This document shows, one piece after another, positions 29,194 to 46,820 of a DNA stretch of 64,000 nucleotides (positions are counted from its first letter, which is position 1; every line of letters begins with the position of its first letter). The DNA lies in the NCBI GenBank assembly GCA_947630745.1, contig CANRIT010000002.1, positions 36,474-100,473 on the forward strand, in the 5' to 3' direction. The position numbers were made by a program, and so were the translations under genes. Origin of the DNA: an uncultured Clostridia bacterium. GTDB lineage: Bacteria > Bacillota > Clostridia > Christensenellales > UBA1242. The notes under the pieces were generated by a model. The model ran no database searches and was not told where the DNA came from. It saw only the letters and a program-made list of their open reading frames with translations.

Positions 29194-29195
29194 AA

Positions 29196-30347: not shown

Positions 30348-30688
30348 AAAAATTTCTCCTATGTCATAAATGTGCTTCAAAAATATCCTTCGCAAATTTC
30401 AATTCAATATGCAAATTTGTATACTTACAAAAATTGCTTTTGCCACACACATTCATTAAGTATAATAATACCACAAAAATCTAAAAATTGTCTACTATTT
30501 CCGCCAACCAAAATCAACTTTTTGAAAAATCTCACATGTTTCAACTTGGTTTAATTGGCTTTTATAGGCTGATCCAATGACTTACTGCTATCTATATCGC
30601 TTCATCTATATAACCATAAGGGTCCTATAAAAAAGTGAGTTGACTGAACTACTTCGCCTAGTTCAGTAGGGACAACCTAAAAATATTA

Positions 30689-31492
30689 CTATTCTAATTT
30701 GTTTATAAGCATAATTTCGTTCTTAACATTAAGCGGAATTGTATCGTATAAAAATATTAATAATTGTATTTTATCAAACATTATATAATAGTATAAAATA
30801 TCTTGCCCTTGTATAATTCTAATGGCGAGGTTTTTATCTTTTGTATTATATTTTAATAAACAATTATAAAATCTTTTTAAATTTTTTATATCACAAATTT
30901 TTGCATATAAATATTGAACTAAAAGTTCTTCCGTTTGTTTTACTATGGTCCATAGATCAACTGCACAAATTTTTTTTAAATTTTTAAACGTCCTATCAAA
31001 TTTTGCCGTAGTTAATTTGTAATCTTTTAATAATTCTTCAAAATCAAAGATTAGATTATTGCAGAAATAATAAAAATGTATTTTATTTTTATGTTGGACT
31101 ATATTCCGCATCTCGCATAAAATTCTATAATTCAAATTATTATCATATAAATATTTTGTAATTAATTGAAAATTCACTTCACCTACTATTTTTTTTAATT
31201 CATTTAAAAAAACATTAAGTTGTCCAATTATATCATTTATATAATTTTGCAATAAATCTATTTTATCATAAGATAAATTTGATTTACTAGCCTCTACAAA
31301 AAGATGATCAACCGTTTCAAATTTAATTTGTTGCGTATCAAAACACTGATGTAATTGTGAAATCATTACATAATGTTCGTAATCATTTTGAAATTCTGAA
31401 TACAACTTATTAATATCAATTATTCCCGGTTCGTATAAATCTACTAAATCACCATTCTTTTTGCTTAAATATACTAATGTTTTATTACTCAT
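30689..31492 (-). CDS. Hypothetical protein with a possible HEPN motif
   Basis: 267 aa, very AT-rich; MRNIVQH Rx4H motif. Confidence 0.5.
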   Translation of the reverse strand: MSNKTLVYLSKKNGDLVDLYEPGIIDINKLYSEFQNDYEHYVMISQLHQCFDTQQIKFETVDHLFVEASKSNLSYDKIDLLQNYINDIIGQLNVFLNELKKIVGEVNFQLITKYLYDNNLNYRILCEMRNIVQHKNKIHFYYFCNNLIFDFEELLKDYKLTTAKFDRTFKNLKKICAVDLWTIVKQTEELLVQYLYAKICDIKNLKRFYNCLLKYNTKDKNLAIRIIQGQDILYYYIMFDKIQLLIFLYDTIPLNVKNEIMLINKLE

Positions 31493-31695
31493 ATATCACC
31501 ATTATTAAAATTGAATTTAGAAGAAATCTGTTAATTTATTTGATATTCTTTTCTATCATCTTTCATAATTTCCTCCTTTTTAACCACTAAATAAAAGGAG
31601 ATAAAATGCGTACATAGAAGGCATGATTATGTTAGCATAAATATTTATAAAAGTCAAATAAAAAACCTAAATTGTGGTTCAATTTAGATTGAAAG

Positions 31696-31869
31696 TGGTT
31701 GCGGGGGTTGGATTTGAACCTTTTACTTCGAAGTACTCACTGGTTATATGTTTCGTTACACTCACATATAAGCCCTCGGTAGGGCTTTACGAACCCAATC
31801 CCCTTGCAACAAAAAACCACTCTAACGAGTGGCTTTTCTGGTTGGGCGAACCCAACCTAAAACGAATCA
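31696..31869. repeat. 174-bp direct repeat copy 1, containing the 25-bp tRNA-fMet 3' end (att-like)
   Basis: 31696-31720 identical to 46744-46768; remainder near-identical to 33088-33261. Confidence 0.92.
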
Positions 31870-31979
31870 TATAAAAACTTGCTTTTTATTTGCATTTGTA
31901 TTAAAATTAATTTTGTTAAAATTGTCATGTTTTGGAAAATTCCGCTACTTTCTAATTTATAATGTTTTGGGAGTGTAGA

Positions 31980-32576
31980 ATGGGTATTTTTGATAATTTT
32001 AAAGAAATAAATGGTAAAATTGAAGATGATTCTTGGATTGAATGGTTGCACTTTTTAATACCTAACAAAGAAAATTGGCTGAGAACTCTTCTAAGGTCAA
32101 TTTTGGCTTGTTTTGGACATTGTTTAAATTGTACTGCTCTAGATGGATGTTATTTTGTTAAATGGAATATGCCTAAAAACAAAATTCCAAATTCAAATGG
32201 GCTTTTGCATCCCAATTGTGATTGCCAAACACAAGATATAAGCTTAAATAAAGTGAGATATAAATCAAGGGCAGATTGCCAATTATCAAAATTTACTAAT
32301 TATGTTTTTGGAGAAAATTCAAAAGGCAAAAAAGCATTGTTTGAATCTTGGGGATTCTCTATTGAAGATTCAGAATATTTAGTTAATATGTATTGCACTC
32401 AAGCAATAAAAAACTATTTAAGCGGTAACTACGTATTAAAAAATTTGGATGAATATGGTCAAAGATTGGCAATTCCAATCACTTTAAAAGGTAATATAAT
32501 GTTTTATTCTGGCTGGATGGTGCATCCTGAAGGCTTAATTACAAACACAACACCATATGCGGGAGAAATGAAATGA
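31980..32576 (+). CDS. MuF-like N-terminus plus DUF6883 putative nuclease toxin
   Basis: CLNCTALDG...LHPNCDC MuF-type motif; KFTNYVF...KGKKALFESWGFS...YGQR...SGWM...TTPY resembles DUF6883. Confidence 0.6.
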   Translation: MGIFDNFKEINGKIEDDSWIEWLHFLIPNKENWLRTLLRSILACFGHCLNCTALDGCYFVKWNMPKNKIPNSNGLLHPNCDCQTQDISLNKVRYKSRADCQLSKFTNYVFGENSKGKKALFESWGFSIEDSEYLVNMYCTQAIKNYLSGNYVLKNLDEYGQRLAIPITLKGNIMFYSGWMVHPEGLITNTTPYAGEMK

Positions 32577-33067
32577 AAAAATATGATATAGTAAAACTTG
32601 TCGAGTTAAATGAAGATTTAAAAAAGAAAAATTTGCGTGTTGGTTTGCACGGCGTTGTTTTGTCTGCCAATTTTGATAACAGCGTTGTGGCATTCTTCAA
32701 CGATGAAAATTTGGGTGAAAATTTAACAGTCCAGGTGGACAACAAGTTTTTAAAAAAAGAAAATGTTACATTGCCACAAAAAATTATAGATATTTTAGTT
32801 TCCAACCCAAATAAATTATTTGCAAATGATAAGGCATTAACAACACGGATATTTAACGAGACAGATTGTGTTGAACTTGTTGTCGAAAAAGAAGAATACT
32901 CGAAACATAATATCCATAAAGGTGAAATTGGGGTAATTGCTTCCGGCGAAATGATAAATAATAAAATGTTAGTAGATTTTACTAGCGTTGATAAAAATGG
33001 CAAAATTTCTGGCGAAATTATAAGTGTAGATGTAAATGATTTGAAATTGAAAAAAAGACCAAAATAG
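32573..33067 (+). CDS. Tandem DUF4926-like putative immunity protein
   Basis: Two repeats (KKYDIVKLV...GLHGVVL and ETDCVELVV...GEIGVIA); ATGA overlap with the upstream gene. Confidence 0.6.
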   Translation: MKKYDIVKLVELNEDLKKKNLRVGLHGVVLSANFDNSVVAFFNDENLGENLTVQVDNKFLKKENVTLPQKIIDILVSNPNKLFANDKALTTRIFNETDCVELVVEKEEYSKHNIHKGEIGVIASGEMINNKMLVDFTSVDKNGKISGEIISVDVNDLKLKKRPK

Positions 33068-33087
33068 TTAGTTTGGTCTTTTTTGTT

Positions 33088-33261
33088 TGGTTGCGGGGGC
33101 TGGATTTGAACCTTTTACTTCGAAGTAGTCACTGGTTATATGTTTCGTTACACTCACATATAAGCCCTCGGTCGGGCTTTACAAACTCAATCCCCTTGCA
33201 ACAAAAAACCACTCTAACGAGTGGCTTTTTTGGTTGAGCGAACCAAACCTAAAACGAATCA
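33088..33261. repeat. 174-bp direct repeat copy 2 (att-like core with one mismatch)
   Basis: Matches 31696-31869 with a few substitutions; offset 1392 bp. Confidence 0.92.
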
Positions 33262-33348
33262 GAACCTTCAAATTTGTTGTCATATTTTTTATGCAATATT
33301 TGCATTTTTATGTTATAATGTTAAATAGATGAAAAATAAGGAGTAAAA

Positions 33349-34659
33349 ATGAAAGTAGAAAATAAAGATATTTACGAGAATGATTTGATCGGCCGAAAGG
33401 ATTTTGTTGAAAAAATTTTAACAACTATTGAAAATGTTTCAAAAGATAAAGGCTGGTGTTTCGCAATAAATGGAGAATGGGGATCTGGTAAAACATTCAT
33501 CTTCAATTTATTAAAAGAAAGTTTAATAAATAAGGATGATTATATATGCATAACTTACGATGCTTGGAATAATTATTTTTATGAAGATCCATTGATGGCA
33601 TTGTTGTTTACGATATTAGATTATTTTGACAATACCAAGGGTATTGGTGAGGATATAAAACAAGGAATTAAAAATGTTATTAATGGATTTTGGACAATTT
33701 TAAATTGCATTCCAGGAGTGGGAACATTTACTCAGACAGCCAAAAAAGTTAGCAATAGATTAACAAAAACAAGGGAAAAGGAAACCAATAATGTTGCCTT
33801 ATCGAATTACAAATCCTACAATACACTATTAAGGGAAACTCAAGCAATTTTAGAAAATCTTACCAAGAAAAAAACTCTTGTTATTTTGGTAGATGAAATT
33901 GATAGATGTACAGCAGATTATGCAATGAAAGTACTCGAAAGAATACATTATTTATTTGACACCAAAAATACAGTGGTCATAGTAAATCTTAATAAAAAAG
34001 AGTTAGAAAATGTTGCCTTAGATAAGTATGACGAACTTGAAAGACAAAGATATTTTAATAAAATTTTCGACTTGATATACAATATTCCACAAGGACATCA
34101 AAATTTTATTCAAAACCTTTGCTTGGAATTAATGCATAAAAACAATATTTTATATAACAATGACGATATTACTAAATTAGCAAATATTTTAGAATTTGAA
34201 ATAAACAATCTCCAACTTAGAGAAATAGTTCAAAGATTTAATATATTTAATTTTTTAATTTCAAATATAAATCAAATTGAAAGGGATTTTTCACTTGTTT
34301 TTGCTGTCATAATATATACAAATTATATTATCACAGAAAAGACTATAGTTTTAAGGCATGTTCCCCCTAAAGAGTTTAGGTTTTCTAATATTATTGATAT
34401 AAACAATCAAATGTTTGACATATTAAATAATATGACTGTCAATTATTTACGCAAATTCGTTTCACATACGACAACTTGCAATGAAAATGCAAAAATAACC
34501 ACATATACTAATAAATGTTTAAACGAGTTATTTTACTTTTTAAATATGTCTTATTTTGGAGACAAAATAAATGTAGATTTGAAAAGTTACTACAATATTG
34601 ATGACAAAAATTTAGAATCGCATATTAAAAACAATTTACATCTTTACGAATTATTGTAA
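33349..34659 (+). CDS. KAP-family P-loop NTPase
   Basis: IGRKDF, AINGEWGSGKT, YDAW, DPLMALL, ILVDEIDRC...VLERI, YFNKIFD. Confidence 0.9.
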   Translation: MKVENKDIYENDLIGRKDFVEKILTTIENVSKDKGWCFAINGEWGSGKTFIFNLLKESLINKDDYICITYDAWNNYFYEDPLMALLFTILDYFDNTKGIGEDIKQGIKNVINGFWTILNCIPGVGTFTQTAKKVSNRLTKTREKETNNVALSNYKSYNTLLRETQAILENLTKKKTLVILVDEIDRCTADYAMKVLERIHYLFDTKNTVVIVNLNKKELENVALDKYDELERQRYFNKIFDLIYNIPQGHQNFIQNLCLELMHKNNILYNNDDITKLANILEFEINNLQLREIVQRFNIFNFLISNINQIERDFSLVFAVIIYTNYIITEKTIVLRHVPPKEFRFSNIIDINNQMFDILNNMTVNYLRKFVSHTTTCNENAKITTYTNKCLNELFYFLNMSYFGDKINVDLKSYYNIDDKNLESHIKNNLHLYELL

Positions 34660-34841
34660 ATAGATCATTCCCATACATCCCTAAGTTGAATGTATTAGTT
34701 TAATTTAGTAATATATTGAGTTGTCTTTTATTTTAATTAATATATTTCAATTATTATTTTAAAAATTTAAAATACATTATCTAAAATGTAATTATCCTTT
34801 TAAAGTTTGACAAAATTTGCTATCTTTGCTATTATGTATTT

Positions 34842-35810
34842 ATGAGAGAGATAAAATTGGATGAAAATAAAAATCCTTACCTACATTCTAAATTATTAAG
34901 AAAATCCTTATCCAAAGCGATAAAATCCATTTCGAATTATCCTGAAATTTTACCGAAATCAATAATTCAAACCGCATCTCGAGTATTTGATATAAACGAA
35001 GATGCTATTGTTTTTGGCAATGGTTCAATGGATTTATTTGGCAAAATTATAAACCACTTTGGAAATAAAAATTACGGGATATTTAAGCCAACCTTTTGGG
35101 GCTTTAAACATTTTTTATACTTATATAATTTCAAAAATTATAAAGAAGTTGAATTCTCAAACTCATATAGCAAAAATATTCAACTTCTTAAATCATTATC
35201 TTTAAATACTAAAGTTTTATATTTATGCAACCCAAACAACCCGACACTTTTCTATTTCAAAAAAGAAGATCTAATTAAAATTATTAAAAACAACCCTAAT
35301 TGTCATTATGTTATTGATGAGACGCTTCTAACATTTGAGAATTTCCCCAAACTTTCGTTATATAAATATGTTCAAAAATTTACCAACATGTCAGTAGTAA
35401 TCTCTTTATCAAAGATTTTCGGCATCGCAGGTTTGAGATGTGGGATCATGTTTACAAATCCGAGTTTGGCAAAAATCTTGAAATCTAAACAGTTTCCATT
35501 TGGAATAAATATTATAACGGAATCATTTATAAAAAACAACCTTTATGAATTTAATAATTTATCTAAAGTAAAAGCAAAAATTTATACAAACTACAATTAT
35601 TTAATAGCAAATCCACCTAAAAATTTTTATAATAAAATTATTAATAGAAACTCTAGTTTTATTTTAATATATACCAATAAAAGCATTGACATCCAAAAGT
35701 TAAAAAATTTTTTAGATAAGAATAAGATATTTTTAAGATATTCCTTCGAACTTAACAATGTATCGGATAATTTCATAAGAGTCAGCGCGGGAAAAATGGC
35801 AGTATCATAA
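34842..35810 (+). CDS. PLP-dependent class I/II aminotransferase (HisC/CobD-like), C-terminus possibly frameshifted
   Basis: FGNGS, LCNPNNPT, VIDET, SLSKIFGIAGLRCG, FIRVS. Confidence 0.82.
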   Translation: MREIKLDENKNPYLHSKLLRKSLSKAIKSISNYPEILPKSIIQTASRVFDINEDAIVFGNGSMDLFGKIINHFGNKNYGIFKPTFWGFKHFLYLYNFKNYKEVEFSNSYSKNIQLLKSLSLNTKVLYLCNPNNPTLFYFKKEDLIKIIKNNPNCHYVIDETLLTFENFPKLSLYKYVQKFTNMSVVISLSKIFGIAGLRCGIMFTNPSLAKILKSKQFPFGINIITESFIKNNLYEFNNLSKVKAKIYTNYNYLIANPPKNFYNKIINRNSSFILIYTNKSIDIQKLKNFLDKNKIFLRYSFELNNVSDNFIRVSAGKMAVS

Positions 35811-35854
35811 ACTTATAAAAAATATCGAATGTTTCTTAAAAAAGGGAAAACAAA

Positions 35855-37267
35855 ATGTTTAGTAAAATTTTTAAAAATGAGTATTTAACTACTTATAGAC
35901 ACCAAATGGCAATACTAGAAAAGCAAAAGCATATTGAAAAAAACCAATCTATAAAAATTTTGAACGGAGAATTACAAAAAACATGGAAAGATGTATTTTC
36001 TATTGATGATATTTTAGATTTTAATCTTGGAGCAATTAAATTTAAGGATTTCGAATGGGAATTAATTAAGAATTCAGCTTTCAAAACCCTTTTTAGTGAG
36101 AAATATCTTGATTCTTCGTATAAATATATAATGGAAAGTGATGATGGTGTGATTCTTAGAGGTTGCGAATGTTATTATTATATTGCGGCGTTTAAAAATA
36201 AATCTAAACAATTAAATAATGAATTTATTATAAATTGGTTAAAAAATATTAGAAATTTTCTTACCAAATCAATAATTTGCTTGGATGTTAAAATTATACT
36301 ATCCTCGATTAATAAAAAATTTATTTTGGGAATTTTAGACCATCTAAGGATGGTTTCGACAATAATGGCGACATTTAATATGAATTTAGACTTTAGTTCT
36401 GAAACTCAACTCAAAATTTATGATTCTATTTCAGAACTTTATAAGTTGAAGTTTGTGAAAATTCTCGATTCGACAATTAATCAGTATTTAAACATTCTTT
36501 TTAAAGGCAGATTCAACAAAAGTCAACTTATAAGAATTTTAAAACAAACTATTGCGTTTATCGATGAAGATATTGAAAAAATTTCAAATATTCAAACTCT
36601 TGATGTATTAATTAATTCATTTAAAATTCATCGCGAAATTGATTGTTTAATAGAAAATTACATATCAGTCTATAATGCTTATGTTACCATGTCGTCAAAA
36701 AATTTATTTGACAATAATAAGAAATATCTTTTAATTGCAATAATGAATGGTGCATTGGAAATGCCATTAATTTTAAAAACTTTTATGCATGGTAAGAGAT
36801 TATCTTTTGGTTTTTTTAGTGATTATAGACCATACATCATACGGCATAATAATCTAAATAATTCTACTAAACATACAATAACATTACAATCAACCGATTT
36901 AATTATAATGGATGATAATATTATGACGGGTAAATCAATTGATAATTTATTAAACCTTTTTAAAAGCCCTATTAATTATCAAACAATTTTAGTTCGACAT
37001 CCAAATATAAATAGGATAAATCAAACTCGCTATAATGGTGTATGTATTAATATTAATGAACTAAGACAAAAAGCATATGGCATGACTTTTGATTCACCTT
37101 ATACAAAATTAAAAGTAAACACCAATTATGGAAACGAATTTTTAGACGAACTAGGCATTTTTACATTAACTGGAGATTTATTTTTAAAATTACTTTATAA
37201 AAATGGACATTTTGCACCAAATTCAGAAGTTTCAACTATTAGGGGGTTATTAAATGATAAAAAATGA
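35855..37267 (+). CDS. Uncharacterised protein with a C-terminal PRTase-like motif
   Basis: LIIMDDNIMTGKSI matches the PRPP-binding loop pattern (hhhhDDxxxTG); remainder unrecognised. Confidence 0.55.
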   Translation: MFSKIFKNEYLTTYRHQMAILEKQKHIEKNQSIKILNGELQKTWKDVFSIDDILDFNLGAIKFKDFEWELIKNSAFKTLFSEKYLDSSYKYIMESDDGVILRGCECYYYIAAFKNKSKQLNNEFIINWLKNIRNFLTKSIICLDVKIILSSINKKFILGILDHLRMVSTIMATFNMNLDFSSETQLKIYDSISELYKLKFVKILDSTINQYLNILFKGRFNKSQLIRILKQTIAFIDEDIEKISNIQTLDVLINSFKIHREIDCLIENYISVYNAYVTMSSKNLFDNNKKYLLIAIMNGALEMPLILKTFMHGKRLSFGFFSDYRPYIIRHNNLNNSTKHTITLQSTDLIIMDDNIMTGKSIDNLLNLFKSPINYQTILVRHPNINRINQTRYNGVCININELRQKAYGMTFDSPYTKLKVNTNYGNEFLDELGIFTLTGDLFLKLLYKNGHFAPNSEVSTIRGLLNDKK

Positions 37268-38705
37268 TTTTGTTAGCGTAATAATAACAACATATAATAG
37301 AAAAGAAAAATTAAAGAACGCTATAAATAGCGTTTTAAACCAAACTTACAAAAATTTCGAACTAATTATTATAGACGATTGTTCAACTGAAGAAATTGAA
37401 CAATTCATAAAAAATAATTTCAAATCAATAAAATATTATAAAAATTCAACAAATCTCGGAGTTTCTGCCAGCAGAAATAAGGGAATTGAATTGGCATCAT
37501 TTGAAACAATTGCTTTTTTAGATGACGACGATGAATGGTTGCCTAACAAATTACAAATATGCATGAATGAAATGCGTAGTGGAAACTATGATTTTGTTTT
37601 CACTCAATTTTTCAAAAATTCAAAGGTTTACCCTGACTCAACTTTTGTAGATAACAATTTTATTTTTCATTCTATACTTAAAAACCCTATTTTATCACCA
37701 TCAACATTCGTTTGTAAAAAAAATATACTTCAAAATGTCGGTTTATTTGATCAAAAAATTAAATGTTTTGAAGATTATGAATTAAGTTTAAGAATTGCAA
37801 AAAATTACAATGGGAAATTTATTCCATTGGCATTAACAACAGTCAATTTTACAGAAAATAGTCTATCGTCTAACAATAATGCTATAGAAGGTCTGAAAAC
37901 TAGAATAGAATTATTTATTAAATATAATAACTTTTTAAAAAAATATCATCTTGAAAAAGAGTGGTTAAAAGGTATAACCAATTTTCAATATTTTATGGAA
38001 TATAATATTTATAAAAAGTTAATTCATCCTGTAGAAATGATAATGGGGTTTAATTTCGACATTGAAAGAACTTGTATTAAAGAAGAATGTCTTAATAGAA
38101 TTGTTCCTTTTAAATTTTTTGATTCATTTGATAAACCTTTTTGGAGTGTTACTGTAAAAATAAATATCAACAAGTTGGTTATGTTTTGCAAAAAAAATAA
38201 ATATTCATTTTATGGCTCTATGTCCTATATACTTTTAAATGCCTGCAATAATGTCAGAAACTTTCGTTTAAGGAAAGAAGGTAAATACATTTTTGATTAT
38301 GCTAATTTACAAGCTCAATTTACAACTTTAACAAAAAGCGGAAATGCCGATATTACTAGAAGAATCAAAAATAATAATTTTATTACATTTATTAAAAATT
38401 TTAATGAATTAAAGCAAGAGACTTTTAATGAATCTATCCCTCCTCATCATTTGGAAATTTATGATGATGTTATATTCTTATCATGTTTACCTTGGTTTGA
38501 TATCAAACATTTAGAACCTGTTATGAATTATAGCTGGAAAGATTATATTCCAAGAATAACTTGGGGTAAATATTTTATAGAAAATCAACAATACTTTATA
38601 AATATTTCATTAACAGTTCATCATGCTTTTGTAGATGGATTTCACGTTCAACAACTATTGTGTGAAATAGAAAGACAAATTGATATTTTAGTAGATAAAA
38701 AATAA
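37254..38705 (+). CDS. GT2 glycosyltransferase fused to a CatA-like O-acetyltransferase
   Basis: SVIITTYNR, IIIDDCS, SRNKGI, FLDDDD, EDYEL; C-terminal SCLPW, PRITWGKY, VHHAFVDGFH. Confidence 0.85.
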   Translation: MIKNDFVSVIITTYNRKEKLKNAINSVLNQTYKNFELIIIDDCSTEEIEQFIKNNFKSIKYYKNSTNLGVSASRNKGIELASFETIAFLDDDDEWLPNKLQICMNEMRSGNYDFVFTQFFKNSKVYPDSTFVDNNFIFHSILKNPILSPSTFVCKKNILQNVGLFDQKIKCFEDYELSLRIAKNYNGKFIPLALTTVNFTENSLSSNNNAIEGLKTRIELFIKYNNFLKKYHLEKEWLKGITNFQYFMEYNIYKKLIHPVEMIMGFNFDIERTCIKEECLNRIVPFKFFDSFDKPFWSVTVKININKLVMFCKKNKYSFYGSMSYILLNACNNVRNFRLRKEGKYIFDYANLQAQFTTLTKSGNADITRRIKNNNFITFIKNFNELKQETFNESIPPHHLEIYDDVIFLSCLPWFDIKHLEPVMNYSWKDYIPRITWGKYFIENQQYFINISLTVHHAFVDGFHVQQLLCEIERQIDILVDKK

Positions 38706-38720
38706 ATTATTTATTTAATA

Positions 38721-38748
38721 AAAATCCACGGATAAACCCGTGGTTTTT
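38721..38748. terminator. Bidirectional terminator between the convergent operons
   Basis: AAAAtCCACGG-ataaac-CCGTGGTTTTT. Confidence 0.65.
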
Positions 38749-38756
38749 ATAGTTCA

Positions 38757-40526
38757 TTATTTTTCCATATTATCTTTAAACATATTCTCTGATAAATGCT
38801 CAAACTCATTTTTTATCTCTGCGCCTATTAAACTTTTAGGGTTTTTTCTTATTTCTTTCTTTATTAAACCTTCAGAACTCTTTTTAACTTTTTTTTTTAG
38901 TTCTTGATATTTCTCTGAAACTTGTTGTGATTGCAACCTTTCGAACAACATATCATTGTTTGTAACTGTTAAATTTTGTCCAATTTCAACAGGTTGCCAA
39001 GTAAAATTTTCTTCTAAATTAAGCTTTTCTTTAATTTTTTGACAAGTTTCTGGAATAAAAGGCCCAAATAAATTTGCAATGTTCGCCATCATGTAAACGC
39101 AAGTATATGTAGTATTATTAAACCCGTTTATATCTTCAACAACTTGAATCCAAGGTTTTTGATCGTCATAATATTTGTTACCAGCACTAACATAAGCCAT
39201 TGCACTATCAAGTGCTTGCCTAATTTTACCTTGTTCAATTAATGGACCAACTTTATTAAACGTATCAACTGTTAAACTTTTAATATTCTCGTCAACTTTG
39301 CCGTTTGGAATTTGCCCTTCAAATTTTTTGTTAATATAAGATAAATTTCTATTTACAAAATTACCGAGCACACCAACCATAAATTTATTGTGAATTTGGA
39401 CAAAATCATCAATAGAGAAATTGATATCTTTTGTTTCTGGTCCGTTGGCTAGCATGTAATAACGAATGGAATCCTTAGGGAATAAATCTATCATATGGTT
39501 CACACTAATTAAATTGCCTTTGCTTTTAGACATTTTTTCGTTGTTCATGTTTACATATTCGCAAGATACGATGTAGTCTGGTAAATTTAGATTTTCATTT
39601 ATAGACATTAACAATGCTGGGAAAATTACTGTATGAAAAGGAATGTTGTCTTTACCATGGGCATAATAAGATGTAACATTACCATTTTTCATAAACTCTT
39701 CAAAATTAATGTTTCTTGACTCAGCAACTTGCTGACCCGCAGTTAAATATCCCAGTACGGCCTCTATCCAAACATAGATCTTTTTATCATCAAAACCCTC
39801 AAACGGGACATCAACGCCCCATGACAACTGTCTAGTTACAGCCCGATCTATTAACCCCATATCTAAAAATTTATTAGTTTCACTTGTGGCATTGTTTCTC
39901 CATTGCCCCTGCCGTTTCTGGTTCAACTCCTTAACTTTGTCTTGAAATTTTGAGAGGGCAAAATAAAGATGAGTATTTGGTTTTTGAATAGTTGGGGTAT
40001 GGCATATACTACACTTTTTATCCAAAACTTCTGAAGCGTTTAATGTTGCTGAACAATCGTCACATTGATCTCCTTTAGCAATCCCACCGCAATGTGGACA
40101 TATCCCAACTATTTCACGGTCTGATAAAAAAGTTTTACATTCTGGGCAATAATCTTGCATCTCTGTTTTTTTATAAATATACCCATTATCCATTATCTTT
40201 TTTAAGTAATGCTTAACCAGTTCTCCATGATATGGGGACATAGTTGAAGTGTAGAGATCGTATGAAAAATCTAAATCTTTAAAATTTTTCGTGAATTCTT
40301 CGTGATAATGTTGTGCTATCTGTTTTGGTGGAATTCCCTCTTTCTTTGCCCTAACAGTAATTGGCGTTCCGTGAGAATCTGTACCTGAAACATATATAAC
40401 GTTATCTCCGTGTTGTCTGTAATACCTTGCAATTACATCTCCAGGCAACAATGCCGCCAAATGTCCGACATGTAAAGAATTATTTGCATATGGCCACGCT
40501 CCACCTATAAAGATATTTTTTCTCAT
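38757..40526 (-). CDS. metG: Methionine--tRNA ligase (island-borne, two-knuckle MetRS2-like)
   Basis: WPYAN..LHVGH, SGTDSHG, four CxxC pairs, YVWIEA, GKDNIPFH, KMSKS; no C-terminal tRNA-binding domain. Confidence 0.93.
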   Translation of the reverse strand: MRKNIFIGGAWPYANNSLHVGHLAALLPGDVIARYYRQHGDNVIYVSGTDSHGTPITVRAKKEGIPPKQIAQHYHEEFTKNFKDLDFSYDLYTSTMSPYHGELVKHYLKKIMDNGYIYKKTEMQDYCPECKTFLSDREIVGICPHCGGIAKGDQCDDCSATLNASEVLDKKCSICHTPTIQKPNTHLYFALSKFQDKVKELNQKRQGQWRNNATSETNKFLDMGLIDRAVTRQLSWGVDVPFEGFDDKKIYVWIEAVLGYLTAGQQVAESRNINFEEFMKNGNVTSYYAHGKDNIPFHTVIFPALLMSINENLNLPDYIVSCEYVNMNNEKMSKSKGNLISVNHMIDLFPKDSIRYYMLANGPETKDINFSIDDFVQIHNKFMVGVLGNFVNRNLSYINKKFEGQIPNGKVDENIKSLTVDTFNKVGPLIEQGKIRQALDSAMAYVSAGNKYYDDQKPWIQVVEDINGFNNTTYTCVYMMANIANLFGPFIPETCQKIKEKLNLEENFTWQPVEIGQNLTVTNNDMLFERLQSQQVSEKYQELKKKVKKSSEGLIKKEIRKNPKSLIGAEIKNEFEHLSENMFKDNMEK

Positions 40527-40539
40527 AACTATCCTCCTA

Positions 40540-41139
40540 CTATAATATTTCATTCCAGTTTTTTAACAACTTTAAGTCTGCATTCCTTTGATAATCTTGA
40601 TTATATTTTGTACAGAACAAGATCACATCAATTCCAAGATACTGTTTAATTTCGATACAATTTTTATAAGAGTCATCAATAAACAAATCACATTTATATC
40701 TATCAACCATATCTCTTTTTTCTTTGTTGCCGATATCAAGCGTATCAAAAGTTATTTTGTTTTTGATTAGCCAATTTTTTGTAATGGCATAAACATCTTG
40801 TTTGTCGCTATAGTGCCTTGCGGAAATAATATGTATTTCATTGTTCATATTATGCAATTTTAACAAAATTTTTTTTACATTTTTTAATGGTTTAACTTTG
40901 TCAAGATAATATGGGTAGCAAGTTTGAAAAAATTTTGTTACATCATCATTATTCCAACCTAGTTCTAAGGCAAAATAGAAATAATCATCAACATTAGAAA
41001 GTTTATTTTTTTTATATTTTCGCTTTAAAACTTTTAAATGAAAATTTTTTGCAAATTTTTTGATAACTTTTGATGTGTTACAAATAGTATCATCTAAATC
41101 AATCGCTATCTTTTTATTATTATACATCATTCGCTCCAC
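40540..41139 (-). CDS. HAD-family 5'(3')-nucleotidase-like protein
   Basis: IAIDLDDTI motif I, IISAR motif II, DLFIDD motif IV. Confidence 0.85.
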   Translation of the reverse strand: MERMMYNNKKIAIDLDDTICNTSKVIKKFAKNFHLKVLKRKYKKNKLSNVDDYFYFALELGWNNDDVTKFFQTCYPYYLDKVKPLKNVKKILLKLHNMNNEIHIISARHYSDKQDVYAITKNWLIKNKITFDTLDIGNKEKRDMVDRYKCDLFIDDSYKNCIEIKQYLGIDVILFCTKYNQDYQRNADLKLLKNWNEIL

Positions 41140-41792
41140 TATGTCAATACTTTTAATAATTTTTTACTATATTTTTTGGCTTTCTTCTTTAGATATCTTT
41201 TTTTATTTGGATTTGCTAACTTATAGCCTAAATACATTTCACCAGCTAAAAAATTAACCGGATTTACATACAAATTATCCAAAATTATATTAATATCTTT
41301 TAAATTTGATTCAAAAACATTATGAAGCATTGTTAAAATTTCAAACCACGCTTTTTCTTCGTAATATTTATCATTTATTACTTTTCCACAGCTTTTGTGG
41401 TCGGTTGTTAAAATATTTAAAAATAATCGTTTTTTCATTTCGGGAGAATTTAAGAACTCTTTGCTTTTAACTATATCATGATAAATATACTCCCCTTTAG
41501 AATTTCTAAAAGGAGAATCAGTAAAAACGTTTTCAACTTCTTTCTTTGTATAAATTAATTTATTACTAAAAGGTATCTCTTCATCAATTTTTAAATTTTT
41601 GCTTTTTTGAAAATTTTTAGTTGTAAAAATTAATTGTTCTTTTTCTTTTTGTGTTAATTCATCTTCTACGATTAAACATAAATCTAAATCGCTGGAACTA
41701 CAGTCGTAAATATTTGAACCATAGAATATTACTTGTACTTTGGGGATAACTTTTTTAATCTCATGCAAATAGGCTTTACAAAGACCATTCAT
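41139..41792 (-). CDS. Pol-beta-like nucleotidyltransferase domain protein
   Basis: FYGS...SSDLDLCLIV (GS-x-DxD). Confidence 0.7.
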   Translation of the reverse strand: MNGLCKAYLHEIKKVIPKVQVIFYGSNIYDCSSSDLDLCLIVEDELTQKEKEQLIFTTKNFQKSKNLKIDEEIPFSNKLIYTKKEVENVFTDSPFRNSKGEYIYHDIVKSKEFLNSPEMKKRLFLNILTTDHKSCGKVINDKYYEEKAWFEILTMLHNVFESNLKDINIILDNLYVNPVNFLAGEMYLGYKLANPNKKRYLKKKAKKYSKKLLKVLT

Positions 41793-43248
41793 TTAATACC
41801 TCTTTACCAACTTTTTCTACATAAGTCACCATCTCTTTTAGTGTTTTATTTGTTATATTTGGGTTGCCAGACATATATCGTAATGGATATAATATTTCAT
41901 CTTTTTTAATTACTCCCAAATCATCATCTAATGAAAATTGATGTAAATGAAATTCCCCATCTTTATAAATTCTATCATGAATCTCTTTATTTACTTTATT
42001 TAATAAATCGATATTTGTTTTTATTTTTGCTGGTGCATACATAAAAACTACTGAATTCATTTCCACATTATTTAATAAAACTAAGTTGTCGCTGGTCAAA
42101 ATCATTTGTTTTAAATTTTGAGCCATATGCATTCGTTCTTCTATCATCTTAGCAATACCGTTCAATCCCAAGTTTTGGAGTACAAACCATAATTTTAATG
42201 AAACCCAACTTTTCGAACCTATGAAAGGTGTAATTTGCCCAAAAGCATAATCTTCTTGCATAATTAAGTCGGAAGTTGAAGTTATTAATTTAAATTTTTG
42301 TGGATTTTTAACTAGCAAAGCGCTTAAACAATATGGAAGATCTAAAACTTTATGAGGATCGGTTGAAATACTGTCAAATTTTTCTATACCTTTAATTCTT
42401 TGTTTTAATTTGCTACTAAATGCTAGTGAAAACCCATGACAAGCATCAGCGTGCAACCAAATATTTTCATCTATAGATTTAACCAAATTATAGACATCTT
42501 CCAAATTTTCAATAGTCATTGTTCTACTGTCTCCAACGTAAGCGACAACACACATAACTTTGCCTTTGTTTTTTATTAATATTTTTTTTAACGCATCTAA
42601 ATCATATTTAAATGCTTTAGTTTCAACTTCGATTACATTCTTGCCAACACCAAGCCACATGCAAGCACTTTTAATGCTATAATGCCCTATACCTTTTGGA
42701 ATTATAGTTATAAACTCATCGGGATTTGTAACACCATGTTCCATTGTTTTATTTCGATGATTTTCTCTAGCCAACATAATAGCGGTTGTATTACTACCGG
42801 TTCCTCCATAAGTAATGATGCCACCGACATCCCAAATGTTATTAATTTTACTTGTAGTATAGCCTAAAACCTTTCTTAAGCAATTAATCACCGCTATCTC
42901 TATATATGTTGCTATTGGAGCACAAAATGTGCTATTTATCAAATTTTGTTGCAATAAGTCGGCATAAATAGATCCTACTAAACCAGCAATTGAATTGCCC
43001 GCATCAGGGAAACTCATAAATTTTTCATTGCTGAAATTAGAACAATACGGCATTATTTCATTGTTAAATAAAGTAACTAATTTCTCAATTTCAACCCCAT
43101 TTTTTGATATTTTTAAGAGATCATCTTTTTTTTCTTTTTTAAAAATCTTCTTCAAAAATTTTTGATCAACCTTAAAATCTATACCATTGTTAACTACTTC
43201 GTTTAATATTTTTTTACATTTATCTTTATTATCGTTATTAATAAACAA
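41776..43248 (-). CDS. Group II PLP-dependent decarboxylase (GAD/DDC/DABA-decarboxylase family)
   Basis: GGIITYGGTGSN, HYSIK, WLHADACHG, DSISTDPHK. Confidence 0.92.
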   Translation of the reverse strand: MFINNDNKDKCKKILNEVVNNGIDFKVDQKFLKKIFKKEKKDDLLKISKNGVEIEKLVTLFNNEIMPYCSNFSNEKFMSFPDAGNSIAGLVGSIYADLLQQNLINSTFCAPIATYIEIAVINCLRKVLGYTTSKINNIWDVGGIITYGGTGSNTTAIMLARENHRNKTMEHGVTNPDEFITIIPKGIGHYSIKSACMWLGVGKNVIEVETKAFKYDLDALKKILIKNKGKVMCVVAYVGDSRTMTIENLEDVYNLVKSIDENIWLHADACHGFSLAFSSKLKQRIKGIEKFDSISTDPHKVLDLPYCLSALLVKNPQKFKLITSTSDLIMQEDYAFGQITPFIGSKSWVSLKLWFVLQNLGLNGIAKMIEERMHMAQNLKQMILTSDNLVLLNNVEMNSVVFMYAPAKIKTNIDLLNKVNKEIHDRIYKDGEFHLHQFSLDDDLGVIKKDEILYPLRYMSGNPNITNKTLKEMVTYVEKVGKEVLNEWSL

Positions 43249-43386
43249 TTTACCTCCTTAATACAATGATTAAACCATAATGTCAATTTTTAAAATATAC
43301 TACAGAATAGATTTATGAAATTATTATACCATAAAAGAATTCGAAATCAATCGTTTTTTTTTAAATTTTTTAAATTTGACATCCTG

Positions 43387-43443
43387 GCGTGTGCTTGTCT
43401 TGTAACAAGTGGCGTCGCTACGCTCCGCCAGACAAGCACACGC
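43387..43443. repeat. Branched palindrome containing the motif of the 43971-44132 array
   Basis: GCGTGTGCTTGTC...GACAAGCACACGC outer stem with internal TGGCG/CGCCA stem and TCGCTACGCTC loop. Confidence 0.8.
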
Positions 43444-43850
43444 AAGGCATTTCAAAACCGCTTGAATGGAATTTAGAAAGGCGTTCGCTAGCTGAAGCAA
43501 AAGCGAAACGCCTTTTTCTCTAAATTCTTAATTATTCAAGCAAATTCGGTTGTGGATAAAAAAGATACGATTGCTAATTTTTTTCGAAAATTATTAAAAA
43601 TCATTTAAATTTTAAATAAAATTAGTGTAAAAAAGTCATATTTTATAAAATTTTTACAAAAAATGTGTGATAAAATGTTTTTGAAGTTAAAAAAGAACAC
43701 GCAAAAATGACAAGCCGAGTTTTTAATATATAGTGTTTGAAATACAAAGTTTTGCTTGGAACTTATAAACAAGTCAGTGGTTGCATTTTAAGGCGTAGAT
43801 TAGAAAATTTTTCTATCTATGTCCTTTTTTAATTCCTATTAGGAGTTGAG

Positions 43851-43970
43851 ATGAAAAAACAGCCACAAGTTATTTTTACAAATGAATTAAACCCTGCCAT
43901 TTTTGATGAGTATTTTTATAAGAAAATTTTAGAACAAATTTTAGAAATAAAAAGCAAACTGGGATTCTGA
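43851..43970 (+). CDS. Small 39-aa ORF upstream of the recombinase (MKKQPQVIFTNELNPAIFDEYFYKKILEQILEIKSKLGF)
   Basis: AGGAG RBS and ATG; not in the ORF track; stop abuts the repeat array. Confidence 0.5.
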   Translation: MKKQPQVIFTNELNPAIFDEYFYKKILEQILEIKSKLGF

Positions 43971-44132
43971 CGTGTGCTTGTCTTGATACAAGTAGAACTC
44001 GTTATTGAGATTCACACGTGTGCTTGTCTTGATACAAGTGATTTCCACTAAGTGAGATTCTGGCGTGTCCTTGTCTTGAAACAAGTAGAAACAAAATTTG
44101 CAACCTACACGTGTGCTTGTCTTGATACAAGT
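43971..44132. repeat. Four 23-bp direct repeats with 23-24-bp interspaces
   Basis: CGTGTGCTTGTCTTGATACAAGT at 43971, 44017, 44064 (2 mismatches) and 44110. Confidence 0.9.
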
Positions 44133-44168
44133 ATATGTCTTTCGCAAGCGAAGTTTAAACAAAAACTC

Positions 44169-44216
44169 TTTTTAGTCAAGGGTAAAATGTATTGCAAGGC
44201 AACCCTTGACTAAAAA
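44169..44216. promoter_or_regulatory. 15-bp perfect inverted repeat upstream of the recombinase
   Basis: TTTTTAGTCAAGGGT ... ACCCTTGACTAAAAA. Confidence 0.7.
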
Positions 44217-44317
44217 ATGAAAATCACAAATTTAATTATACTAAACCATTTTTGTTTGTTTCGCTTGTGTCGAAAGACAAATTAAAAAATTTAATAAATA
44301 GAAAAGGAGTATTTAAG

Positions 44318-45799
44318 ATGAAAACAGCAGTAATATATGCAAGGTATTCAAGTGATAATCAAACCGAACAATCTATTGAAGGTCAACTAAGAGTGTGTGA
44401 AGAATATGCCAAATCTCATGACATATTAATTTTAAACACATACATAGACCGAGCAATGACAGGCACAAACGACAACCGCCCAGATTTTCAACAAATGATA
44501 AAGGACAGTAGCAAAAAAGATTGGCAATATATTTTAGTGTACAAGATTGATAGATTTTCACGAAATAAATATGAGATTGCAAAATACAAAAAGATTTTAA
44601 AAGACAATAATGTGAAATTACTTTCAGCAATGGAGAACATCCCAGATACGCCAGAAGGAATAATATTAGAATCCTTACTTGAGGGTATGGCGGAGTACTA
44701 TTCAGCCGAACTTGCACAAAAAATTAGGCGTGGTATGCACGAAACAAGATTAAAAGGCAATTTTCAAGGCGGATATGTGCCTTATGGATACAAACTTGAT
44801 GGCAAAAAATTGATAATAGATGAAGAAAAAGCGGAAGTGGTTAGATATATTTTCAAACAATATTCACTAGGCACTTATGTTAAAGATATTATTAAATCTC
44901 TTACAAATATGCACATTTTAAACAAGGGAAAACCTTTTGTTAGGAATACAATTTATATGATTTTGAAAAATGAAAAATATTCGGGAATTTACAAATTTAA
45001 CGACGAGATATATGAAAACACATATCCACAAATAGTTTCGCCAGAGATATATCAAAAAGTTAAAAATAAAATTAATATGAACAAATATGGCAAACGAAGT
45101 GTTGATGTGGTTTATTTGTTAAGAAACAAACTTGTATGTGGTTATTGCGGAATGCCAATAAGTGCAGAAGGCGGAACTGCAAGAGATGGAACTAAAAAGC
45201 ACTATTATAAATGCCTGGGAAGAAAACGAAATAATGGTTGCAAAAAAGCAACAATAAGCAAAGAAACATTAGAAAATTTTGTAATTGAAAGCATAACAAA
45301 TGTTTTAAATTCGCCAAAATACATTGACACTTTAATAACCAATCTAATGAAATTACAAGAACATTCAACAGAAACAAATTTAACATTGAAAACGCTGTTG
45401 AACGAGCAAAAAGAAGCGAAAACAATTTTAAACAACATTATGAAAGCGATTGAAAGTGGAATCATAAACAAAACAACAAATCAACGGATGAAAGAGTTGG
45501 AAACGCAAATAGAAGAATTAGAAAAATTGATTTTAATTGAAAAGAATAAAACAAATGTAAAGTTATCTAAACAAGAAATTAAAGAATATTACATACAAGC
45601 AATAAAGCTTGAACCCAAAATGCTTATAGATTACGCAATTAAAGAAATTAAAGCATTTGATGACCAAATTGATATTACATTTAACAGCCCATTAAAAAGT
45701 CCTGAAAATCATCAGGGCTTTTTTCTTTTCAGTTTTACAAAAAATTTACATAGCAAAAATTTGAAAAACAATAACATACTTGTAAAATTCTTTGCATAG
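44318..45799 (+). CDS. Large serine recombinase (resolvase + recombinase + Zn-ribbon + coiled coil)
   Basis: VIYARYSS catalytic Ser, SIEGQ, YKIDRFSRN, PYGY, LVCGYCG...YYKC. Confidence 0.96.
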   Translation: MKTAVIYARYSSDNQTEQSIEGQLRVCEEYAKSHDILILNTYIDRAMTGTNDNRPDFQQMIKDSSKKDWQYILVYKIDRFSRNKYEIAKYKKILKDNNVKLLSAMENIPDTPEGIILESLLEGMAEYYSAELAQKIRRGMHETRLKGNFQGGYVPYGYKLDGKKLIIDEEKAEVVRYIFKQYSLGTYVKDIIKSLTNMHILNKGKPFVRNTIYMILKNEKYSGIYKFNDEIYENTYPQIVSPEIYQKVKNKINMNKYGKRSVDVVYLLRNKLVCGYCGMPISAEGGTARDGTKKHYYKCLGRKRNNGCKKATISKETLENFVIESITNVLNSPKYIDTLITNLMKLQEHSTETNLTLKTLLNEQKEAKTILNNIMKAIESGIINKTTNQRMKELETQIEELEKLILIEKNKTNVKLSKQEIKEYYIQAIKLEPKMLIDYAIKEIKAFDDQIDITFNSPLKSPENHQGFFLFSFTKNLHSKNLKNNNILVKFFA

Positions 45800-45960
45800 T
45801 GGCTATTTATTCCATGGTGAACTTGACAAGAGAACTCTGGAATGATTTTAACCCCATTAATAAGGCAAAGAAGAAGCATTATGCTATCTCCTTTGCCTTT
45901 GTGATATTATTTTTCATTCCATCTCTTGTCAAGCACCTTTCACGGCATAAAACCGCCACC

Positions 45961-46662
45961 TTACTTTGTGCATTTTATATTTTCAAAATTAATAGATTTG
46001 ATAAGTTTTTTAAAAGTTAACATACATTTATTGTAGTTATCGCATGTCAATGCCGGGTTATTATATATTGTGAAGTTCATTAACCTAATATGTATATCAT
46101 TTCTTATATCAATTAAATTTTCTAATATTTTTATTTGTCTTTCAGTTAAATTTATAATATTCAACTCTTCTAATCTAGTTAATAGCTTTTTTAAATCATA
46201 TGCTTGGCTTTTGTTTATAAGATAATTACATTTCTTTTGATTTCTACACTTTGAGCAAAAATCCCTATAGCGTTGAGCTAATTCATTTAATATAGCCTCC
46301 AAAATAATTGCTAAGTTTATACTTTCATAATAAAAATATACTTTTTTCATCTGACCAAAAATATAAAATCTTGTATTAAAATAATGCGTTAAATCAGAAT
46401 ATTGCATTAAATACGCAATATTGCTTTGATGTTGATAATTATCTGTTATTTTTGCCAAATTATATTGTTCAATAAATTCTTCTTTTTTTCTAATATATTC
46501 TCTAGGAATTGTTATTCTATTACCCTCCATAACTGGGAAAAGACGTCTTTCTAAATCACTCAATTCGGAAAGATATATTGTTTCGTTTCTCTTCAACAAC
46601 ATCGATATAGTGCTGTTATTATCTATAATTTTACGCTCTGCTTCCTTTGATAATTTTTTCAT
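45961..46662 (-). CDS. Hypothetical protein, possible HEPN-like nuclease
   Basis: 233 aa; IILEAIL helix and IRNDIH motif near the C-terminus. Confidence 0.5.
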   Translation of the reverse strand: MKKLSKEAERKIIDNNSTISMLLKRNETIYLSELSDLERRLFPVMEGNRITIPREYIRKKEEFIEQYNLAKITDNYQHQSNIAYLMQYSDLTHYFNTRFYIFGQMKKVYFYYESINLAIILEAILNELAQRYRDFCSKCRNQKKCNYLINKSQAYDLKKLLTRLEELNIINLTERQIKILENLIDIRNDIHIRLMNFTIYNNPALTCDNYNKCMLTFKKLIKSINFENIKCTK

Positions 46663-46668
46663 CTAATT

Positions 46669-46697
46669 ATTATATTTTACTTTGCTCTAAAAGTCAA
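46669..46697 (-). promoter_or_regulatory. Near-consensus promoter for 45961..46662 (probably leaderless)
   Basis: TTGACT, 17 bp spacer, TATAAT ending 6 nt before the ATG; no RBS. Confidence 0.6.
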
Positions 46698-46743
46698 ATA
46701 AAAAACCTAAATCAAACTTTTGTGGTTCAATTTAGGTTTAGAG

Positions 46744-46820
46744 TGGTTGCGGGGGTTGGATTTGAACCAACGACCTTCGGGTTATGAGCCCGACGAGCTG
46801 CCGTGCTGCTCCACCCCGCG
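46744..46820 (-). tRNA. tRNA-Met(CAT), initiator type (fMet)
   Basis: CGCGGGG...CCCCGCAACCA with C1:A72 mismatch, GGG/CCC in the anticodon stem, CAT anticodon, TTCAAAT T-loop; promoter TTGACA-17-TACACT at 46838-46866. Confidence 0.97.

Follow-up and report, generated by a model that had tools for sequence, protein, structure and literature searches.

A probable composite island array, attributed to a large serine recombinase, at the 3' terminus of an initiator tRNA gene

Results

The locus at tRNA-fMet

We analysed a stretch of 64,000 nt, referred to here as the window, from the metagenome-assembled genome (MAG) of an uncultured Clostridia bacterium (GenBank assembly GCA_947630745.1, contig CANRIT010000002.1, forward-strand positions 36,474 to 100,473); the MAG comprises 1.13 Mb in 19 contigs. 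Several gene modules lie side by side at the 3' end of the initiator tRNA gene (tRNA-fMet) in this window, and we read the region, with good though not full confidence, as a composite of small integrative islands that the large serine recombinase (LSR) encoded at 44318-45799 has assembled into an array. This recombinase would recognize the T-loop of the tRNA as part of its bacterial attachment site (attB), and a pseudo-tRNA, here named X, would have offered it a second landing pad.

The tRNA gene lies at 46744-46820 on the minus strand, was found by ARAGORN and Rfam, and is the only tRNA-Met(CAT) gene in the window; its ends read CGCGGGG...CCCCGCAACCA, and its C1:A72 termini are those of the initiator. 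The original prediction for this DNA had placed copies of the 25-nt 3' end of tRNA-fMet at 31696 and 33088, each opening a near-identical 174-bp element that recurs with a 1392-bp period. Both observations held. The antisense of these 25 nt, TGGTTGCGGGGGTTGGATTTGAACC, is present at 31696 with no mismatch, at 33088 with one mismatch and at 46744 in the gene itself, where shuffled sequences led us to expect 0 matches and gave none. The direct repeats 31696-31869 and 33088-33261 are 95% identical, with eight differences, and lie 1392 nt apart. The hairpins and terminator-like element attributed to the repeat are also present: the 174-nt unit folds strongly on either strand (z-scores of -5.0 and -4.1), and the terminator-like AAAAAACCACTC..GAGTGGCTTTT was picked up by a terminator consensus scan as well. 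A second repeat pair was found in addition: a stretch of 48-56 nt that directly follows the tRNA (46688-46743) has an 86% identical counterpart at 31648-31695.

Two objections that the original prediction had raised against itself did not hold. A search of the whole 1.13-Mb genome returned two copies of the 174-nt repeat only, and the repeat is therefore not dispersed genome-wide. An assembly artefact might be feared in a MAG of 19 contigs; however, the copies differ at eight positions and all four repeat junctions are covered separately by Logan unitigs with copy-specific bases, so we take the duplication to be real and consider the artefact scarcely credible. The unitigs came from four runs of one rabbit-gut sample, which may itself be the source of the MAG, and their support is thus not fully independent. 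In a BLAST search of the 174 nt against 60 relatives, the only matches were the tRNA itself and three short partial matches covering the terminator and the P' part.

On our reading, each 174-nt repeat resolves into the pseudo-tRNA X (115 nt), the native terminator of the tRNA, T1 (28 nt), and a left attachment junction, attL (31 nt), so that the left junction of a mobile island would form the end of each repeat. The features concerned are listed below; P and P' denote the attachment arms carried by the element, and B' the tRNA-side half-site.

31648-31695, plus: Pl_A, predicted element-type P-arm terminator ..TTCAATTTAGATT-GAAAG; abuts the 3' end of X_A as an attR-type junction and fits the P-arm consensus with 5-nt spacing
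31696-31810, minus: X_A, predicted pseudo-tRNA remnant; it closes with the 25-nt 3' end of tRNA-fMet (a full B' half-site), with which its 5' GUUGCAAGGGG pairs
31811-31838: T1_A, intrinsic terminator, taken as the B-left or host half of attL
31839-31869, plus: attL_A, predicted; core TGGTTG then P' arm GGCGAACCCAACCTAAAACGAATCA; same architecture as attL in 10 other loci
33050-33087: tm2, bidirectional terminator abutting the 3' end of X_B; no match to the P-arm consensus
33088-33202, minus: X_B, second pseudo-tRNA copy, with one change in the 25-nt end (CCAGC)
33203-33230: T1_B, terminator, read as the host side of attL_B
33231-33261, plus: attL_B, predicted; core TGGTTG then P' arm AGCGAACCAAACCTAAAACGAATCA; left end of island E3
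33237-46743: E3, predicted island of 13.5 kb between attL_B and attR
44252-45799, plus: LSR, 515-aa ORF with its likely start ATG at 44318; Pfam Resolvase, Recombinase and Zn_ribbon_recom
46688-46743, plus: Pl_C, P-arm terminator AACCTAAAT..ATTTAGGTT-TAGAG, right end of E3; this arm is conserved beside different tRNAs and in different hosts
46688-46749: attR, predicted; P arm then core TGGTTG
46744-46820, minus: tRNA-fMet; B' half-site at 46744-46768, which includes the T-loop; inferred crossover core at 46744-46749

A recombinase clade at the ends of tRNA and tmRNA genes

The original prediction had named the recombinase at 44318 as the candidate enzyme, and it remains the likely driver of the array. 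Its three domains scored 6.8e-29 (PF00239), 3.2e-13 (PF07508) and 2e-11 (PF13408) in a Pfam search that took in the submitted ORFs between 14 and 51 kb, that is, every long non-nested ORF; no Phage_integrase match was obtained among these ORFs and the serine recombinase was the only recombinase found. A scan for homologues in one genome per species yielded 75 loci. In what follows, G-numbers stand for related genomes or species and L-numbers for loci that encode recombinase homologues.

Of the 26 homologues with at least 55% identity and enough flanking sequence, 23 have a tRNA or tmRNA gene no further than 2.2 kb from the stop codon of the recombinase, on the opposite strand and with its 3' end towards the recombinase. 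The genes targeted by these close relatives are those for tRNA-Ser (several isoacceptors), Gln, Ile, Leu, Lys, Tyr and fMet and for tmRNA; several relatives of ~40% identity adjoin Lys, Trp, Pro, Ala or tmRNA genes. Most Faecalibacterium relatives have no adjoining tRNA or tmRNA gene. In a maximum-likelihood tree, the members with at least 55% identity fall within a group of 21 rows (support 100/100), which also takes in two Gallimonas sequences with no tRNA nearby; the other 19 rows form a subgroup with weaker support (94/92), in which the target tRNAs are intermixed. These data place the recombinase in a clade whose elements sit at the very end of tRNA and tmRNA genes.

Relatives encode a HUH Rep (PF23343) upstream of the recombinase, and the islands delineated in them contain no tyrosine integrase. 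A conserved ORF of 71-78 aa lies downstream of the recombinase in relatives; a recombination directionality factor did not emerge from the analysis. The genome of the window holds further members or fragments of this family: an LSR that is 71% identical, with a P arm abutting tRNA-Ser (contig C4:206-2140); an LSR fragment of 80% identity and a separate P arm by a tRNA-like end (C11:1-1820); an LSR of 46% identity (C9:2934-4367); and a lone P arm at a contig start (C1:176).

Architecture of the attachment sites

The 60 nt downstream of each target tRNA have in common a terminator hairpin that ends in TTCGATTTAGGTT. This motif, followed by five variable nucleotides (TTCGATTTAGGTT-N5), keeps a constant distance of 5 nt from the tRNA end whichever the tRNA or host, as tabulated for 22 attR sites. 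Since this intergenic DNA is conserved across hosts and targets, we regard the P arm as element DNA and the tRNA terminus as the junction. The right junction attR is thus an element-borne terminator, TTCGATTTAGGTT-N5, abutting the tRNA end; the Pl_C arm of the window is also found in G018 and L085.

The left junction was sought upstream of the recombinase as the cognate 6-nt tRNA end, a gap of 6-12 nt and the reverse complement of the P-arm motif, in the 15 loci with at least 6.7 kb of upstream DNA. Exactly one match was obtained in 9 of the 15, always with a gap of 9 nt starting with AG, and a looser pattern recovered a tenth locus. The opposite strand gave 0 matches, 750 shuffles gave two and 165 tests with a wrong core gave one. 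From these matches, attL can be described as a host terminator, the last 6 nt of the tRNA, AG, N7 and AAYSTAAAWCGA (the P' arm). On its host side, attL has a terminator-like hairpin in most loci, in line with the native flank of a tRNA. The block shared by attL and attR measures 6-10 nt in 12 pairs from 11 loci and begins 0-3 nt before the tRNA end, and the islands so delimited in relatives span 3.9-11.8 kb.

In the genome of the window, the P' motif AACCTAAAACGAATCA occurs at two positions only, 31854 and 33246, each preceded by TGGTTG and a 9-nt spacer. As the sole two P' motifs lie there after TGGTTG, we assign the last 31 nt of each 174-nt repeat to attL. The P' arm of attL_B also occurs 3-4 kb upstream of the recombinases of L033 and L034, which are 95-97% identical to that of the window. 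The original prediction had taken the 25-nt copy for the att core and the whole 174-bp unit for the att site; neither assignment survives, as attL comprises the last 31 nt only and the core common to both ends is formed by the final 6 nt of the tRNA.

Joined together, the P and P' arms make an imperfect palindrome (TTCGATTTAGGTT, AACGTAAAACGAA), with outer motifs 20 bp apart. The predicted attP consists of 46714-46749 joined to 33237-33266, and the predicted attB of 33203-33236 joined to 46750-46775. Half-site positions were counted from the symmetry centre, which lies between antisense nucleotides 5 and 6, equivalent to tRNA positions 72 and 71, where the crossover would take place. TAAA(T/A)CGAA stands at +15..+23 in both element arms, which puts TCGAA at +19..+23. 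On the tRNA side, GGATTCGAACC is the T-loop, with TCGAA at +14..+18. The outer motif is thus 5 bp nearer the centre in attB than in attP, and this holds for the tRNA half alone, no consensus being seen in the host-side half. The same displacement towards the centre, by 5 bp in attB, has been established as a rule for the LI integrase (PMC3783163).

We propose that the universal T-loop (TTCGAA) serves as the attB motif recognized by the zinc-ribbon domain. Such a reading would explain why relatives are found at Ser, Gln, Ile, Leu, Lys, Tyr, Trp, fMet and tmRNA genes. With the host-side half of attB barely specified, a landing site could be any sequence that ends in the last ~25 nt of a tRNA, even one that is already occupied.

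The host sides of some attL sites beside different tRNAs share further motifs, GTTCGAATTGTTATCACT in L037 (6000-6030) and L041 (2100-2131) and GTTCAACTGGTTCTCACT in L044 (3650-3680); in L041, GTTCGAATTGTTATCACT comes after a second LSR of 44% identity. The GTTCGAATTGTTATCACT motif probably represents the P arm belonging to a second LSR subfamily and would then be a marker of tandem arrays. T1 was considered as a P arm of another subfamily and rejected, as it resembles neither the main P-arm motif nor GTTCGAATTGTTATCACT.

The pseudo-tRNA X and the native terminator T1

Read in the sense of the tRNA, X opens with GUUGCAAGGGG right after the T-run of T1 and closes with the 25-nt tRNA 3' end. Joining T1 to the tRNA rebuilds a plausible empty site, in which the terminator follows the tRNA at once, and T1 is read as the native terminator of the tRNA.

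Homologues of X follow tRNA-fMet and its terminator in G030, in G014 and, in part, in G029, with no island between the tRNA and X. The G030 copy covers the Rfam tRNA model from end to end, with 25.5 bits against a gathering score of 29, and has a compensated T-stem of its own, ACAGG/CCUGU; Rfam returned no family for X in the window. L033, L034 and L044 (the last an element at tRNA-Gln) keep only the core and P' of the repeat and have unrelated DNA at the position of X; the core of L044, TGGCTG, matches tRNA-Gln. X is thus host DNA and not part of the island. The original prediction had seen the self-complementary part of the repeat as a degenerate inverted copy of att; this part falls in X, and is present in relatives where no island parts X from the tRNA. 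Ending in a complete tRNA-side half-site, X would be suited to serve as a second landing pad.

Two other views of X were discarded. X-T1 is not a miniature element, as its two ends, read directly from the sequence, are not inverted repeats of each other; and selection for pairing in X is not indicated, as the copies differ by one wobble and one pair-breaking change. Downstream of tRNA-fMet in G008, G007 and G032 (L008, L010 ~1526-1715) stands another structured spacer, which ends in a 31-nt copy of the tRNA 3' end; consecutive tRNA-end copies are ~190 nt apart in these spacers, and the unit, terminator included, is tandemly repeated in G008 and G032. Left of attL in L033 (4270-4368), a T1-like terminator is followed by GTTGCAAGGAG, which resembles the passage from T1 to the start of X in an orientation opposite to that of the window.

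Direct repeats of a tRNA end resemble the usual tRNA-fragment signature of islands, and the 174-nt copies diverge evenly along their length, as would suit a classical tandem accretion. Two related islands would then have integrated in succession by crossing over in the 25-nt tRNA copy (or in the 73-81-nt repeat 31648-31720 / 46688-46768), and the 149 nt after the core would be a P' arm. We regard this as improbable. Of the repeat, L033, L034 and L044 retain the final 31 nt alone; X is found after tRNA-fMet in species that have no island between them; and the two element ends have no more than 6-10 nt in common in the 10 loci outside the window. Two attR-type junctions, each composed of a P arm and a tRNA-like end, account for the 73-81-nt repeat, and a tyrosine integrase is lacking.

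Junctions of the array

The window contains two attR-type and two attL-type junctions, and only E3 is bounded on both sides. E3 is apparently a complete element, judged by its two junctions. To its left the junctions differ in kind. The terminator Pl_A fits the P-arm consensus at the right spacing beside X_A, and an element was therefore once inserted at X_A; the low-GC DNA to the left (R1, described below) would be what remains of this third element, which has no recombinase. The junction between X_B and tm2 looks native, because tm2 does not fit the P-arm consensus and because the same junction is present in G014, 98% identical over 63 nt and with no P' motif near. On these grounds tm2 was rejected as a P arm, and tm2/X_B looks like an unoccupied attB-like site. 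No inverted spare attP was seen in E3, nor is the attP of E3 located inside the recombinase gene.

Elements in relatives can also stand in tandem. In L041 and L081, a second LSR gene (44% identical) ends 116 nt and ~430 nt, respectively, to the left of the tRNA-proximal attL, from which we conclude that new elements insert at an already occupied tRNA end. The newest element would lie next to the tRNA, as fits an attB with an unspecified host-side half. The tandem accretion at one site foreseen in the original prediction is thus borne out in part: the locus is a hotspot with several independently acquired modules, and tandem elements exist in L041 and L081, but accretion alone does not explain the second copy of the repeat.

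For this second X-T1-attL copy, the likeliest origin that we can infer is recombination between two differently occupied versions of the hotspot, or transfer of a composite element. In the first route, two differently occupied alleles of the locus would have recombined within the toxin-immunity genes that lie between the repeats; in the second, a composite element excised between an outer attL and an attR would have arrived as a whole. A third route would be an earlier tandem duplication of T1-X through the 25-nt repeats, comparable units of a terminator and a tRNA fragment being present in G008 and G032.

The orientation of tRNA-fMet relative to its c1 and U32 peptidase flanks in G030, G029 and G018 differs from that in G008, G007, G014 and G035, and these differences between species point to inversions at the locus. 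The variable region is always at the 3' end of tRNA-fMet in these relatives. In the genome of the window, the c1 flank is on another contig.

Gene modules

The module contents given in the original prediction (DUF262/HEPN genes, a toxin-immunity pair, and a KAP NTPase with enzymes and the recombinase) were as described, the HEPN match being weak. The remaining features are as follows.

23247-31647: R1, low-GC island remnant with no recombinase, ending in a P-arm terminator
31962-32576, plus: toxin-like gene of module 2, with a DUF6883-like C-terminus (weak Pfam match)
32573-33067, plus: immunity-like gene of module 2 (weak DUF4926-like match)
33262-43300: cargo of E3, namely a KAP NTPase (PDC-S20-like), an aminotransferase, a 470-aa unknown protein, a GT2-CAT fusion, a second methionyl-tRNA synthetase (MetRS), a HAD protein, a nucleotidyltransferase and a pyridoxal phosphate (PLP) decarboxylase
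43377-43410 and, as four tandem copies, 43960-44132, plus: five 34-nt hairpin repeats (CTTGT/ACAAG) upstream of the recombinase, part of its conserved module
45961-46662, minus: 233-aa ORF without a family match; a variable gene, flanked by the recombinase and the P arm, with other DNA in its place in L085

R1 has a GC content of 0.25-0.35, against ~0.38 in its flanks. By Pfam and PADLOC, it encodes PqqD, two radical-SAM proteins, a UvrD/HelD-like helicase, the weak HEPN match, a DUF262/GmrSD protein (NsnA-like) and a 267-aa ORF.

Module 2 is the toxin-immunity pair between the two repeats. Homologues of the toxin-like gene occur in the same variable region in G035, G007 and G008, and G035 also has a homologue of the immunity-like gene, at 49% amino-acid identity. 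attL_A stands directly upstream of the promoter of the pair. With attL on the left but a native-type junction on the right, module 2 is not a bounded element. In another rabbit-gut run (X6), contigs match the module from 31899 rightward, with unrelated sequence and no attL to the left; as these contigs differ left of ~31899, the toxin-immunity module occurs in other strains without the 174-nt repeat.

Module 2 is also where two capture schemes can be weighed. The original prediction had offered an integron-like system, in which 174-bp units that fold as single strands capture small toxin or defence cassettes; the strong fold on either strand and a 1.2-kb two-gene module between two copies would suit it. 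We consider this scheme very improbable. It would have to operate with two repeat copies in the genome and none in the 60 relatives, and with no IntI-type tyrosine recombinase; the hairpins can be assigned to the stem of a pseudo-tRNA, to a terminator and to a half-site of the LSR; pairing is not preserved where the copies differ; and on its right the module has a native-type terminator, also found in G014, and no recombinase site.

In the other scheme, the LSR itself would run a capture array, mobilizing in trans mini-cassettes that have no recombinase and hardly anything beyond a P'-type half-site, and stacking them at tRNA-like ends; the toxin-immunity module would then be a cassette of this kind, and X would be kept as a landing pad. 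The position of attL_A directly before the toxin-immunity promoter is in keeping with this, as are the unspecific host-side half of attB, the re-use of occupied sites and the complete tRNA-side half-site of X, already used in X_A. However, module 2 has no P arm on its other side, it is the only module of its kind present, and the homologue in run X6 has a different left flank from 31899 and no attL, which makes the scheme an unlikely one.

E3 has a constant backbone and an exchangeable interior. In the position of its cargo, L033 and L034 have type II restriction-modification systems, and other relatives have type II or type IIG systems; only P' and the LSR module are common to the window and L033 and L034. 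Since near-identical LSR elements hold different cargo, the backbone is constant and the cargo is swapped. The MetRS of the island (38757-40553, minus strand) is an extra copy, and a MetRS-like gene on contig C8 is only 25% identical to it over 548 aa; its place in an operon with HAD, nucleotidyltransferase and PLP decarboxylase genes suggests self-resistance or a tRNA-dependent pathway. The 34-nt hairpin repeats are kept in L033, L034, L040 and L044. E3 has no HUH Rep, and its 34-nt repeats stand at the Rep position instead; they may be an origin or an oriT, and E3 may depend on a helper.

Discussion

The integron-like reading of this locus has given way to a concrete map of attL, attR, attP and attB, on which the array would have grown from the tRNA-fMet terminus and from X through the activity of one LSR. 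Several observations weigh against this reconstruction. No excision or circle junction was seen in the Logan contigs of the rabbit-gut runs, which have a depth of 3-5x and drop minor variants; an apparent joint, 33112>46770, has only 26 nt on one side and is therefore taken as a tRNA contig placed on the repeated core. An empty site in the same species was not found. At tRNA-fMet, G018 has an LSR of 67% identity with the same P arm, but a search over 10 kb gave no attL. For R1, neither a P' end, which would be a third attL, nor a left boundary was found. The right end of module 2, tm2, appears not to be a P arm, which leaves the X-T1-attL duplication without a clean mechanism. The central dinucleotide and the assignment of domains to motifs are inferred from symmetry and from the LI integrase model. 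Exact-pattern scans of metagenome and genome collections, its own genome excluded, found neither the junction of core and X nor an attL of the fMet type.

A wider and much more tentative picture can be drawn. We speculate that gut Bacillota possess an insertion platform based on a serine recombinase, for which recognition of the universal T-loop and the tRNA-side half of attB would suffice, so that tRNA-like 3' ends of any kind (the gene, the pseudo-tRNA X or an occupied site) would serve as landing pads, arrays would grow next to the tRNA, and modules with a single P' and no recombinase, such as the toxin-immunity pair, would be moved in trans.

What seems to us more interesting than the original claim is the LSR family itself, which apparently targets the last bases of tRNA and tmRNA genes by reading the T-loop. 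As insertion at these bases leaves a repeat of 6-10 nt, tools that look for displaced fragments would probably miss such islands, and the clade might be responsible for many of the small defence and restriction islands of gut Clostridia and Bacilli. The T-loop as outer motif of attB, if true, would explain the easy retargeting between tRNAs, and would represent a serine integrase with a natural class of target in every genome, which is of interest for genome engineering.

Comparison with known systems

tRNA genes are classic landing sites of genomic islands, an association attributed to tyrosine integrases. Islands of the Islander type resemble E3 in their site at a tRNA 3' end, in a recombinase that adjoins the tRNA, in the restoration of the tRNA by element-borne sequence and in their defence and toxin cargo. 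They differ in that the recombinase here is a serine recombinase, that ~4-6 nt of the tRNA are replaced with no long displaced fragment, and that the element brings a new terminator; the 25-nt tRNA fragments of the window would belong to a pseudo-tRNA and not to the crossover.

With the large serine integrases of phages and integrative and conjugative elements (ICEs), such as A118/LI Int, Bxb1, phiC31 and SPbeta SprA, the clade shares the domain set, the short core, the imperfectly palindromic attP and the 5-bp shift of attB. Unlike these integrases, it has as its target the 3' terminus of tRNA and tmRNA genes and not a protein-coding gene, and its inferred outer attB motif is the universal T-loop, with an unconserved host-side half. 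Our search of the literature, incomplete in its coverage, found no description of LSRs at tRNA ends, and the LSR survey of Durrant et al. (2022) makes no mention of tRNA (PMC10083194).

Integrative and mobilizable elements (IMEs) of Firmicutes, and the accretion of ICEs and cis-mobilizable elements (CIMEs), resemble the present elements in small size (4-12 kb), an outward-facing integrase at one end and tandem accretion with decayed elements (PMC5357655). As in IMEs, a rolling-circle-Rep-like gene is present in relatives of E3, E3 itself having no Rep. In the survey of streptococcal IMEs by Coluzzi et al. (2017), serine integrases were found only in the protein genes rumA, traG, maff2 and snf2, and every IME with a Rep-like relaxase had a tyrosine integrase (PMC5357655); the relatives of E3, unlike these, pair an LSR with a HUH Rep and a tRNA target.

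The likeness to integrons is superficial, and consists of short gene modules parted by a repeated, foldable sequence; unlike integrons, the array has no IntI and no attC architecture, its modules have promoter-like sequences of their own and its repeat has two copies. A parallel in organization can be drawn with the staphylococcal cassette chromosome (SCC/SCCmec), whose elements are mobilized by the Ccr serine recombinases and stack at the 3' end of one conserved gene, rlmH. SCC/SCCmec arrays mix modules with and without a recombinase, parted by repeated att-type sequences. Unlike SCC/SCCmec, the array described here has a tRNA and not rlmH as its target, and a single recombinase gene in place of the ccrAB pair. 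The proposed platform, if true, would be a form of gene capture that works like an integron or SCC, with a different chemistry and a different target.

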